Source: a virus. Taken from it: a DNA stretch of 51,498 bases. Below, in pieces: positions 7,781-9,511 of the stretch; position 1 is the stretch's first letter; each line of letters opens with the position of its first letter. The stretch is from the IMG/VR virus record IMGVR_UViG_3300045988_067228, positions 1 to 51,498 of that record. One strand, given 5' to 3'. Both the position numbers and the translations under genes were made by a program. The notes under the pieces are model-generated. The model was not told where the DNA came from, did not search any database, and was given only the letters and a program-made list of their open reading frames with translations.

Positions 7781-7812
7781 ATATTGCACCCCGCCACAGG
7801 GCGGGCGTATAT

Positions 7813-7856
7813 AGTGCCAAGTGCCTCTCCAAATGGAGCGAACAGTGCCAAGTGCC
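7813..7856 (+). repeat. Two exact copies of AGTGCCAAGTGCC (site A), upstream of terL
   Basis: 7813-7825 and 7844-7856, read directly. The same motif recurs at 10316 and 19820. Confidence 0.9.
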
Positions 7857-7888
7857 TTTTATCTTAAGGGATAGGAGGCACTTTTTTC
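7851..7888 (+). promoter_or_regulatory. Terminator-like, RBS-occluding hairpin plus U6 immediately before the terL ATG
   Basis: AGUGCCU 7851-7857 pairs with AGGCACU 7876-7882, then TTTTTT. The terL SD GGAGG (7874-7878) overlaps the 3' arm. Confidence 0.5.
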
Positions 7889-9511
7889 ATGGAAATTCGG
7901 GGGTTGGTAGAGAGGGCATTTCAGAGGGATTTGTCCGACCCGTCTGCGCTATTTGATGCATTTGATTCGATCAGATTGTTGGAGCCAGAGGATTTTAAGC
8001 TGGCTCATGAGAAAAACAAAGAGGTACGTCGGCTGTCTGCAAAATTCGCCGCAGAACAAAAAAGCCTCCGTATGTTCGAGTTGAACAAGCGGAGTCTGCT
8101 GTTTGATGCGCCGTATGATTTTGATGCGGCGATAAGATATGCTGAGTGGGATAGAGAACCGAAGAAAAAGTTCTATATGCCACGCAGAAAGCAGTTGCTT
8201 CCGGTTGTTCAAGCTATGCAGCGGCTATCTGAACGGAAGATACGCATTTTGGGTGTTATGGCTCCCCCAGGCGTCGGGAAGACCACCATTGAATTGATGT
8301 TCATGGTGATGGAGGGGTTAAAGAATCCAGATTTAAGCATTCTGATGGGTTCGCACTCAAACTCATTCCTACGTGGGGCTTATGAAGAAGTTGGGCGGAT
8401 GTTAGACCTCAAAGGGGAGTATTTGTGGAAAGATATTTTTCCATCTGTTCAAGTTTGCAAAACAAACGCCCAAGACATGCGAATTGATCTTGGAAAACGA
8501 AAGCGGTTTGAGACCTTTGAGTTTTCGTCTATAGGCTCTGGTAACGCGGGCAAAGTACGTGCCTCGAATCTTCTGGTAGCAGATGACCTTGTACCTGATA
8601 TCGAGTCCGCAATGAGCAAAGAGCGCATGGACAAGCTCTGGCAGCAGTATTATACAGACCTCATGCAGCGTATGATCGGAGATTGTGTCCAGCTTCTTGT
8701 CCAAACACCTTGGACGTTGCATGACCCCATTGACCGACTTGAACTAGCCCATGCAGAAGACCCGCTGGCAGAGTTTATCCACCTACCCGCTTTGGATGAA
8801 AATGATGAGAGTAATTTTGATTATCCGTATGGGCTTGGGTTTACCACGGCATTCTATCACAATCAAAGAGATGTTATGGACGATGCTTCCTGGAGGGCAC
8901 TATACATGACTCAGCCCATTGAGCGTGAAGGACAGCTCTACAATGAGGATGAGCTGCGCAGGTATTTTGAACTTCCTGACGGTAAGCCCGATGCCATCCT
9001 GTTTGTATGCGATACGAAGGACAAAGGCACTGATTACTGCGTCATGCCGATTTGTTACCAGTACGGAAATGACTTTTATTGTGAAGACGTAGTATGCGAC
9101 AACAGCAATCCAGAGGTTGTAGAGGCGCGGCTGGTGTCAAAGCTCGTTCAGCACAAGGCTCAGATGGGCCAGTTTGAAAGCAATAGTGCTGGCGGTAAAG
9201 TGGCAGAAAAAGTTCAAAAAGAAGTGAAAGAAGCTGGGGGAATTGCAAAAATAACAACAAAATATACTACATCGAACAAAGAGACGCGGATCATAGTCAA
9301 TAGTCCATTCATCAAAGACCGTGTTTTGTTTAAGGATAACTCTGTTATCAAAAAAGATAAAGAATACAGACGAATGTTGAATTTCCTTTGTGGGTACACG
9401 ATGGTCGGTAAGAATCGAAATGATGATGTCCCAGATGCGTGGAGCCTATTTGCCGAATATGTCCAACAACTTGAGGGAAACAAGGTTGAAGTATTTAAGC
9501 GACCATTTTAA
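7889..9511 (+). CDS. terL: Terminase large subunit
   Basis: Walker A GVMAPPGVGKTT, Walker B-like LLVADD. 540 aa with a C-terminal nuclease-like region. Confidence 0.9.
   Translation: MEIRGLVERAFQRDLSDPSALFDAFDSIRLLEPEDFKLAHEKNKEVRRLSAKFAAEQKSLRMFELNKRSLLFDAPYDFDAAIRYAEWDREPKKKFYMPRRKQLLPVVQAMQRLSERKIRILGVMAPPGVGKTTIELMFMVMEGLKNPDLSILMGSHSNSFLRGAYEEVGRMLDLKGEYLWKDIFPSVQVCKTNAQDMRIDLGKRKRFETFEFSSIGSGNAGKVRASNLLVADDLVPDIESAMSKERMDKLWQQYYTDLMQRMIGDCVQLLVQTPWTLHDPIDRLELAHAEDPLAEFIHLPALDENDESNFDYPYGLGFTTAFYHNQRDVMDDASWRALYMTQPIEREGQLYNEDELRRYFELPDGKPDAILFVCDTKDKGTDYCVMPICYQYGNDFYCEDVVCDNSNPEVVEARLVSKLVQHKAQMGQFESNSAGGKVAEKVQKEVKEAGGIAKITTKYTTSNKETRIIVNSPFIKDRVLFKDNSVIKKDKEYRRMLNFLCGYTMVGKNRNDDVPDAWSLFAEYVQQLEGNKVEVFKRPF

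Follow-up and report, generated by a model that had tools for sequence, protein, structure and literature searches.

Tandem-repeat hairpins before the terL, portal and tape measure genes of a phage genome and a Com-like zinc ribbon as their candidate opener

In the hut operon of Bacillus subtilis, the oligomeric protein HutP blocks a terminator by binding short single-stranded repeats, set at regular intervals, that overlap the terminator's 5' side. In phage Mu, the zinc finger protein Com acts beside a translation-inhibition hairpin that hides the start of mom, and activates expression (PMC6483171). The Com zinc finger picks out a bipartite motif, NGAGNNCC(N)2-3GAGNNCCNN, in SELEX, and it binds 5'-CC(N)2-3GAG-3', only weakly when the motif lies in a duplex (PMC6483171). 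In Tn916, terminators act as insulators (PMC11658703). The subject of this report is a repeat element present at three sites in the IMG/VR virus record IMGVR_UViG_3300045988_067228, of which the whole stretch of 51,498 nucleotides (positions 1 to 51,498) was analysed and is called the window below. The element stands at hairpins just before the genes for the large terminase (terL), the portal and the tape measure protein (TMP). Comparison with related phages makes it likely that these sites are factor-dependent RNA switches, and on balance it appears that a Com-like zinc ribbon, encoded between terL and the portal gene, opens the repeat-locked terminators and ribosome-binding site (RBS) sequestors before the three genes. 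The literature searched contained no description of this element, or of a Com-like regulator or antiterminator of terminase or portal genes.

The repeat element in the window and in related phages

In the window scan, AGTGCCAAGTGCC pairs were confined to 7813-7856 (site A), 10316-10363 (site B) and 19820-19847 (site C), all on the sense (+) strand and just 5' of terL, the portal gene and the TMP gene, respectively. An earlier note on this DNA, made from its letters alone, had proposed a test for enrichment of the motif, and the tandem indeed occurs far above chance: with up to two mismatches allowed, the 13-mer has 10 matches in the window against 2.1 expected, a number reached by none of 100 shuffles. 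The six good copies (7813/7844, 10316/10351 and 19820/19835) lie on the + strand only. The lone hexamer AGTGCC is not enriched (28 observed versus 23.8 expected), and the signal is therefore the tandem arrangement. A looser scan of the window for tandem G[UA]GC[CU] returned zero further sites beyond A, B and C.

Site A precedes terL (7889-9511, + strand; phrog_38, E 3.8e-50), the first of the genes proposed to be regulated. Its repeats 1 and 2, AGUGCC-A-AGUGCC (7813-7825, +), form an exact 13-mer whose position before terL is conserved in related loci. They are followed by a predicted spacer hairpin, P1, with a CGAAC linker (7826-7843, +; CUCC 7827-7830 pairs with GGAG 7835-7838) and by repeats 3 and 4 (7844-7856, +), of which repeat 4 (7851-7856) lies at the foot of the 5' arm in a terminator and RBS sequestor (7850-7887, +). 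The stem (7850-7883) comprises 15 bp and runs into six T residues (7882-7887); AGUGCCU (7851-7857) pairs with AGGCACU (7876-7882). The 3' arm contains the terL Shine-Dalgarno (SD) sequence GGAGG (7874-7878). The hairpin, with an energy of about -17 kcal/mol, abuts the terL ATG at 7889, so that both SD and start are occluded. The minimum free energy (MFE) of the site in RNAfold is -27.5 kcal/mol (z -2.8). Upstream lie another hairpin (CCCGCC/GGCGGG, 7790-7805) and the word TATATA (7808-7813).

At site B, repeats 1 and 2 (10316-10328, +), a predicted spacer hairpin P1 (UCCGGGC/GCCUGGA) with a CGAAG linker (10329-10350, +) and repeats 3 and 4, CGUGCC-G-AGUGCC (10351-10363, +), follow one another in the same order. 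Here too a terminator (10357-10405, +) has repeat 4 at the base of its 5' arm; its 19-bp stem spans 10357-10398, and its run of seven T residues ends at 10405. This hairpin was the top hit of the terminator scan, in which the site A stem (7850-7883) was also among the best, and the RNAfold MFE of the site is -43.9 kcal/mol (z -4.2). The portal gene (10424-11899, +), the second gene proposed to be regulated, encodes an SPP1 Gp6-like protein (PF05133, E 1.9e-65). Its start is most likely the GTG at 10424 and not the ATG at 10337, which lies inside site B; the SD sequence GGAGG (10412-10416) and the GTG are both 3' of the terminator.

Site C (19820-19847, +), before the TMP gene (19870-23472, +; phrog_1535, E 1.6e-35), the third gene proposed to be regulated, consists of four repeats without a spacer hairpin, AGUGCC-A-AGUGCU-UU-AUUGCC-A-AGUGCC, a 2+2 layout shared with the related loci L281, L287 and L288. 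Its hairpin (19834-19870, +) pairs UAUUGCCA (19834-19841) with UGGCAAUA (19863-19870) and has no T-run; the SD sequence GGUGG occupies 19858-19862, and the 3' arm includes the A of the TMP AUG. A compensatory change in that arm, GGCAAU, matches the AUUGCC variant of the repeat. The hairpins of sites A and B are G+C-rich stem-loops followed by a U-run and are therefore intrinsic terminators, while site C, without a U-run, is a translational sequestor only.

These results agree with the earlier note in the coordinates of the repeats, stem, SD, T-run and start codon at site A, and in its claim that the repeats form the 5' arm of a terminator-like, RBS-occluding hairpin at three sites, each following an inserted module and standing before terL, portal or TMP. 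Its further statement that the sites stand precisely where an inserted module must be bridged proved too narrow: in virtually all relatives, site B comes after the zinc-ribbon gene.

No Rfam 15 family matched the three sites at gathering thresholds, or the stretch 7700-10500 at E up to 10; the related sites of loci L305 and L392-L394 had no Rfam match at E up to 1. Several other identities were considered and rejected. An antisense or small RNA partner was ruled out, there being no good GGCACUUGGCACU on the sense strand of the window; a sigma-54-like reading of the 3'-arm TGGCAC was ruled out by eye, no TTGC being present at the right spacing; and mimicry of a tRNA 3' end (GCCA) was ruled out, the A following just the first repeat of each pair.

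A pattern scan of IMG/VR yielded 106 loci with the element, mostly from human gut, and searches with the small protein described below added about 160 loci. The anatomy of the element is constant across the related gut-phage loci: up to four (A)GUGCC(R) heptamers are followed by a hairpin, the repeats being arranged as two, a spacer hairpin and two, as four in tandem, or as two and two with a 2-nt spacer. The 5' arm of the terminal hairpin opens with the last GUGCC, and the 3' arm ends in GGCAC and a U-run. Among 71 distinct instances (43 distinct hairpin sequences), the last repeat is paired at the stem base in 62 and at least four T residues follow the stem in 63; the median hairpin energy is -17 kcal/mol. 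The site A stem recurs in relatives with loop and stem variants. When sequences were folded one by one, the spacer hairpin had at least 4 bp in 22 of 23 distinct inserts, built from 10 different stem sequences, and it is thus kept in structure and variable in sequence; its loops vary from 3 to 7 nt without a conserved A1/G4 pattern, and it is dispensable. An ANTAR- or BglG-type antiterminator was ruled out, since the conserved elements are unpaired tandem repeats and not dual hexaloops or a ribonucleic antiterminator (RAT) hairpin. An analysis of the inter-repeat region with MAFFT and RNAalifold was dropped because it misaligned the variable hairpin and produced spurious GUGC:GUGC pairing.

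The terminal stem has been preserved through sequence change. Over the bottom 9 bp of 38 distinct stems picked by MFE folding, 95.6% of positions are paired, against 71.1% in shuffled sequences (0/500) and 36-46% when the arms are slid. In a register-fixed alignment, seven of the nine stem-base pairs show compensatory changes, as the earlier note had suggested looking for in related phages, where the motif recurs. Changes in the repeat are mirrored in the 3' arm, giving the combinations GUGCC/GGCAC, GUGCU/AGCAC, UUGCC/GGCAA (site C) and GAGCC/GGCUC.

In total, 283 repeat clusters were found in 185 loci. When assigned to the gene homologue up to 200 nt downstream, 124 precede a portal, 119 terL, 14 a major-tail and 8 a TMP gene; one other gene was also assigned, and 17 of the 283 were without an assigned gene. 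The upstream context is mosaic, with at least eight unrelated contexts joined at a breakpoint that coincides with the 5' edge of the first repeat. The 50 non-redundant upstream contexts tend to be A/T-rich, with A at -1 in 41, and some are G+C-rich.

Long tandem arrays of the heptamers AGTGCCA and AGTGCCG also occur in unrelated, mostly high-GC bacteria (L107-L226, e.g. L114, L115, L118, L129, L139 and L145), including Gemmatimonadota, Acidobacteriota, Chloroflexota and Phycisphaerae. They are often followed by an inverted complementary array and adjoin other heptamer arrays, in the manner of microsatellites of the short tandemly repeated repetitive (STRR) type. Despite the equal period, these bacterial arrays are probably unrelated to the phage element.

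A zinc-ribbon protein related to Com and the switch of its repeat

Between terL and the portal gene, adjoining site B, the window encodes a 55-residue, four-cysteine, Com-like zinc-ribbon protein (10135-10302, +), the proposed trans-acting binder of the repeats. A homologous gene lies at most 1.5 kb upstream of the portal gene in all 130 portal loci, which were ascertained by motif or protein, and the synteny extends to homologues of 30-50% identity, which occupy the same place 5' of an SPP1-type portal gene in the contexts with enough flank. In the divergent phage L037, the zinc ribbon is 87% identical to that of the window, against 57% for terL and 65% for the portal protein. An exhaustive profile search gave 72 cluster representatives, nearly all of 45-100 residues, and 64 sequences show little or no variation at C7, C10, C38 and C41. 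An AlphaFold2 model shows a small, beta-rich, zinc-ribbon-like fold (predicted local distance difference test score 94.4), with metal binding as a prediction. The nearest named homologue is from Anaeromassilibacillus sp. (Acutalibacteraceae, Clostridia). The protein reaches no family in NCBIfam or PHROG; 21 of the 64 family members have weak, sub-threshold matches to Cys_rich_KTR, and the matches in BFVD are just uncharacterised cysteine-rich phage proteins and mis-named 'RNA polymerase' zinc ribbons.

A link to Com emerged when families were compared. Bona fide Com proteins (PF10122 members) were collected and aligned (alignment A5), and hhalign related the zinc-ribbon family profiles to it with probabilities of 90.1% (A2; E 1.6e-6) and 93.1% (A3; E 3.1e-7), while the family member P0092 reached 96.3% (E 1.7e-9), with 47% identity over 34 columns. 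These alignments are in full register over both CxxC knuckles, KLLFK and CKxCKxxIxI. The window protein itself has no match to PF10122 even at E up to 10, and this family is not among the frequent matches of the 64 members, its sole match being P0078 (E 0.008; 16.1 bits versus a cut-off of 22.9). Since the Pfam model is not reached, the relationship is one of remote homology and not of family membership by the curated criterion. The earlier note had placed this open reading frame (ORF) first among its candidate regulators and had drawn an analogy between a repeat-binding antiterminator or translational activator and Mu Com; the ORF does encode a zinc ribbon that aligns to the Com family, and the analogy has gained comparative support from the family alignments and from the change of repeat and 3' arm with protein clade, described below.

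The RNA sequences bear a resemblance to the Com target, in sequence only. The tandem GAGCC-N3-GAGCC of a distant clade contains CC-N3-GAG, and the window repeat AGUGCC-A-AGUGCC contains CC-AA-GUG, one base off the Com motif, with U replacing the A that is crucial in the GA of the Com motif. The hairpins at sites A and C occlude an SD or AUG.

This distant zinc-ribbon clade, to which P0082 and P0092 belong, carries GAGCC-N3-GAGCC repeats of 8-nt period instead of GUGCC. The second GAGCC is the base of the terminator 5' arm, and the 3' arm is GGCU(C/U) followed by a U-run, so that here too repeat and hairpin overlap. The zinc-ribbon ORF holds the pre-portal site within its 3' end, and the C-terminal peptide 'EP(L/M/V)SR' or 'EPxEP' of the encoded proteins (L306-L311, L312-L391 and L392) is the translated GAGCC-N3-GAGCC. 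The nucleotide motif, and not the peptide, seems to be conserved, because the GAGCC element also occurs outside ORFs. It is also present before terL in L309, L311 and L392 and after the portal gene in L317-L391. Across 600 kb from loci of this clade, 151 copies of the tandem lie on the sense strand and none on the antisense strand.

The type of repeat follows the protein. The short form P0071 (L394), with 'CKKNI', is accompanied by GUGCC-N3-GUGCC before both terL and the portal gene, and the short form P0091 (L392), with 'CRKEI', by GAGCC at both sites. Among 235 zinc-ribbon ORFs identified by hidden Markov model, in counts that are phylogenetically redundant, 'KKN' proteins ('...C..CKKN') go with GUGCC by 127 to 0, and 'K.E', 'KEV' and 'KEQ' proteins go with GAGCC-N3-GAGCC by 87 to 0. 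In a neighbour-joining tree, which is weak at about 50 columns, the GUGCC protein P0090 stands beside the GAGCC protein P0091. The repeat has changed in concert at several unlinked sites per genome, which argues for a trans-acting reader. With its clade tracking the repeat change and its gene at the site, the zinc ribbon is the obvious candidate for this reader, and the Asn (Asn44 in the window protein) or Glu after the second CxxC is a candidate specificity residue for GUGCC versus GAGCC.

The zinc-ribbon gene could be expressed independently of site A from a sigma-A-like promoter candidate 3' of terL (TTGTTA-18-TATAAT, 9551-9580, +; 10/12 match). Similar promoter-like sequences follow terL or precede the zinc-ribbon gene in L305 and L309. 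Alternatively, the first zinc-ribbon molecules may come from leaky readthrough followed by positive feedback. The promoter candidate is followed by about 550 nt of G+C-rich DNA without a credible ORF (9585-10134, +), which extends to the zinc-ribbon gene. Its + strand folds with z -5.6 (0/100 shuffles) and its - strand with z -2.6. More than 100 related loci show patchy conservation of it, with counterparts also in L305 (1780-2410), L393 (300-600) and L394 (3680-4000), and it has no Rfam match; either a structured RNA of an undescribed kind or a long leader regulating the zinc-ribbon gene may lie here. In divergent relatives, tRNA genes or tRNA-like sequences repeatedly adjoin the zinc-ribbon gene, downstream in L287, at 2415-2485 in L305 and immediately upstream in L306-L308; the L305 copy scores 60.4 bits in Rfam, and the others were read by eye.

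Proposed mechanism and its alternatives

By default, the hairpins would form, transcripts from upstream morons would stop at sites A and B, and the SD or AUG would be hidden at sites A and C. In nascent RNA, the zinc ribbon would bind the repeat tandem, probably in dimeric or higher oligomeric form; the putative minimal RNA target of the 10135-10302 protein is AGUGCCAAGUGCC, in two copies, and the spacer hairpin may juxtapose two repeat pairs for an oligomeric protein. Binding would compete with the hairpin because the last repeat (repeat 4) must be single-stranded to be bound. On bound RNA, polymerase would pass into the terL, portal and TMP genes, with the ribosome sites made accessible; the terL mRNA would require readthrough because its ATG lies 2 nt after the T-run. 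The likely role would be to insulate dangerous packaging and virion genes from moron promoters active in the lysogen, and late structural expression would thereby depend on one phage-encoded key. Tn916 provides a precedent, in which insulating terminators are combined with antitermination encoded by the element (PMC11658703). It seems somewhat more probable than not that the factor is the zinc ribbon, acting as an activator.

A number of points weigh against this mechanism. RNA binding by the zinc ribbon, termination, readthrough or antitermination, the direction of the effect and its timing are all inferred. The protein is below the cut-off of every Pfam family, Zn_ribbon_Com included, and neither Foldseek against the PDB nor a PDB sequence search gave a solved structural relative or a meaningful sequence relative. 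hhalign probabilities can be inflated for short cysteine-rich domains, and the single-sequence comparison with Com is ambiguous (32%, in a shifted register), the comparison being informative only between families. The native Com site is a hairpin loop, unlike the two to four tandem, apparently single-stranded repeats found here. The RNAfold energy of the site C hairpin is unexceptional (-16.9 kcal/mol, z -1.1), and the 95.6% pairing figure given above is inflated, the stems having been picked by MFE folding. The zinc-ribbon gene lies 3' of site A, and its expression thus needs either its own promoter, for which there is a candidate, or leaky readthrough. Finally, the clade-specific switch of the repeat rests on few independent lineages and a weak neighbour-joining tree, the loci were ascertained by motif or by protein, and the association of protein with motif is confounded because all carriers share one terL-portal module.

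The last point leads to an unlikely alternative, that the same cis logic is read by a different binder, another phage protein or a host RNA-binding protein, with the zinc ribbon a mere conserved neighbour such as a packaging accessory. Adjacency and co-inheritance within one shared head-morphogenesis module are no proof of interaction, the zinc ribbon matches no characterised family at curated thresholds, and other small zinc-ribbon or helix-turn-helix ORFs are present in the window (1049-1231, 49802-50110 and 29560-29811). A neighbour without a role at the RNA would leave unexplained that the change from GUGCC to GAGCC accompanies the zinc-ribbon clade at several sites per genome, that the GAGCC repeat fits the experimentally defined motif of Com, a remote homologue of the family, and that the GAGCC-clade site is embedded in the zinc ribbon's own 3' end, as in com-mom.

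The earlier note had offered, as one of two models, activator-dependent late promoters with a good -10. In this model the A/T-rich box would be the -10, the repeats would be DNA sites for an activator or a Q-like loader, and the hairpin would be a leader or a terminator overcome by modified polymerase. Q-type systems have a promoter-proximal DNA site and a nearby terminator. TATA-like words do precede many sites (e.g. TATATA at 7808-7813 and ATATAG at 10307-10312), and upstream modules often end in a hairpin, after which a restart would be convenient. Nevertheless, the box is conserved neither in sequence nor in position among the 50 non-redundant contexts, which show no hexamer at a fixed distance and no -35; a start about 7 nt past the box would land in repeat 1, and the promoter scan gave no + strand site at A or C and a weak 9/12 match at 10279-10306. 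GAGCC-clade sites lie inside an ORF, and with a period of 7-8 nt, consecutive sites would not share a face of the DNA duplex. Also unexplained under a DNA model is the co-changing complement in the 3' arm, and because the covarying inter-repeat hairpin and the overlap with the terminator make sense only in RNA, the late-promoter model is unsupported and must be considered improbable.

Equally improbable is the absence of any regulation, with the hairpins as leaky ordinary terminators or insulators and the repeats as recombination-promoting boundary sequences between mosaic modules. Mosaic breakpoints and the 5' edge of the first repeat coincide exactly, and terminators are common between phage modules; yet recombination linkers need no strand bias, covarying spacer hairpin or matched change in the 3' arm, the element lies within a coding region in the GAGCC clade, and an occluded terL SD and start without a release mechanism would be costly for an essential gene.

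It is more doubtful still that the zinc ribbon binds the repeats and stabilises the hairpin, in TRAP- or PyrR-like attenuation or autoregulation that would lower expression of the portal and downstream genes. The gene immediately 5' of its terminator, with the GAGCC site in its own 3' end, has the classic autoregulatory layout. Under such a scheme, strong default terminators before essential genes would be left without release, and a late protein would act as a repressor at the terL and TMP sites; moreover, Com binds its duplexed motif poorly and activates expression (PMC6483171).

The least probable explanation is a cis-acting RNA of the put or canT type that modifies polymerase for processive antitermination without a dedicated protein. 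The put RNA of HK022 is a cis-acting RNA in a mobile element. Although canT of Tn916 is another mobile-element example (PMC11658703) and the present element is orientation-specific and upstream of terminators, a constitutive antiterminator fused to its own terminator makes the terminator pointless, the spacer hairpin is dispensable (absent in site C, L288 and the GAGCC clade), two pentamers are too small for a polymerase-binding fold, and modification of polymerase does not relieve SD or AUG occlusion.

If the zinc ribbon does open the repeat-locked hairpins, the Com paradigm, confined to a single protein with a single target in Mu since the late 1980s, would become a family, with no fewer than 72 clusters (50% identity) and contigs in IMG/VR by the hundred, and would shift from translational control of an accessory gene to control of both transcription and translation of essential genes. 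The chances seem about even that Com is the founding member of a widespread family of zinc-ribbon RNA binders serving as the master key of late genes in siphophages of gut Clostridia with an SPP1-type portal, with two to four repeat-locked sites per phage and orthogonal clade specificities. Temperate phages of gut Firmicutes would then have an undescribed way to gate packaging and virion genes by a single 55-residue opener, which would explain both the strong terminators right before terL and portal and the tolerance of morons inside late operons. The protein-terminator pairs would be natural and programmable, with an easily tested protein-RNA recognition code, and the two natural specificities would supply synthetic biology with very small orthogonal RNA-binding antiterminator parts.

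Neighbouring genes and comparison with described systems

The small terminase gene terS is located at 1480-2091, and 5.8 kb of accessory genes separate it from terL, including a minus-strand gene, a helix-turn-helix gene, and genes for HNH, DUF551 and RtcB proteins, the last three being the morons directly 5' of site A. None of the late regulators RinA, ArpU, sigma or Q was found among the ORFs flanking terS or the end of the early region. In the prophages L396 and L397, a toxin-antitoxin pair of the RelB/YafQ(ParE) type (positions 446-992) lies directly 5' of the site A element; one RelB/YafQ-bearing prophage with both sites is in the NCBI genome GCA_046693725.1. This position fits a terminator insulating against a constitutively active moron promoter.

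The rtcB gene (6578-7780, +) is a single reading frame broken by one TAA at 7310-7312. The codon is CAA (Gln) in 24 related loci, so that the TAA is a nonsense mutation or sequencing error, and an intron or a recoding event is ruled out.

The moron directly 5' of site C is a minus-strand gene for a lipoprotein-like product with a signal peptide and an LTSC lipobox (18838-19767, -), located between the tail chaperone genes and the TMP gene. It has a terminator at 18825-18798 (-) and a promoter-like site at 19842-19815 (-), and the -35 of its best promoter-like match, TTGGCA, is the reverse complement of the site C repeat TGCCAA; the site C repeats may thus double as part of a divergent promoter. 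A RAGATH-31 RNA (RF03101; 29887-29940, +) scores 81.7 bits against a gathering threshold of 71.8 and lies just 3' of the lysis-region genes.

The phage that encodes the Com-like protein also encodes a Mom-like DNA-modification protein (48469-48942, +; phrog_1384, E 1.5e-25), far from the zinc-ribbon gene. This gene has an in-frame TAG at 48520-48522, between '...ANAFVE' and 'HHRHHKP...', and the tandem scan of the window found no G[UA]GCC tandem 5' of it.

Among described systems, Mu Com is the closest in several respects. Both proteins are four-cysteine zinc ribbons of about 55-62 residues encoded directly 5' of a gene that is controlled in Mu and proposed to be so here; the target, putative here, adjoins or overlaps a start-hiding hairpin; and the GAGCC-clade site extends over the 3' end of the ORF for its proposed regulator, as in com-mom. 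However, the hosts are Clostridia here and Proteobacteria for Com, the repeat core is GUG in the clade of the window, and instead of one DNA-modification gene the sites precede essential structural genes (terL, portal and tail), at two to four per genome. Most of the hairpins, moreover, are intrinsic terminators, which would bring transcription as well as translation under control.

The repeat-binding logic proposed here is the same as that of HutP and TRAP. Unlike the present protein, these have unrelated folds, HutP being a hexamer, recognise NAG or GAG/UAG triplets and not G[UA]GCC pentamers or hexamers with a period of 7-8 nt, and serve cellular metabolic operons under ligand control (histidine and tryptophan). 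A scan of roughly 35 window ORFs gave no HutP or TRAP domain.

Lambda N/nut and Q/qut, put of HK022 and canT of Tn916 are, like the proposed system, means by which mobile elements pass terminators for late or transfer genes. Rfam scans at the sites found no boxA/boxB, Q-binding element or put-like two-stem fold. In those systems, polymerase is modified once and is then processive over many kilobases, whereas here each gene block has its own repeats overlapping its own hairpin, which points to local competition with folding, a solution that would also relieve RBS occlusion. What would be new, if this interpretation is correct, is the coupling of Com-type zinc-ribbon switches to intrinsic terminators, before essential late genes and at multiple sites per genome.

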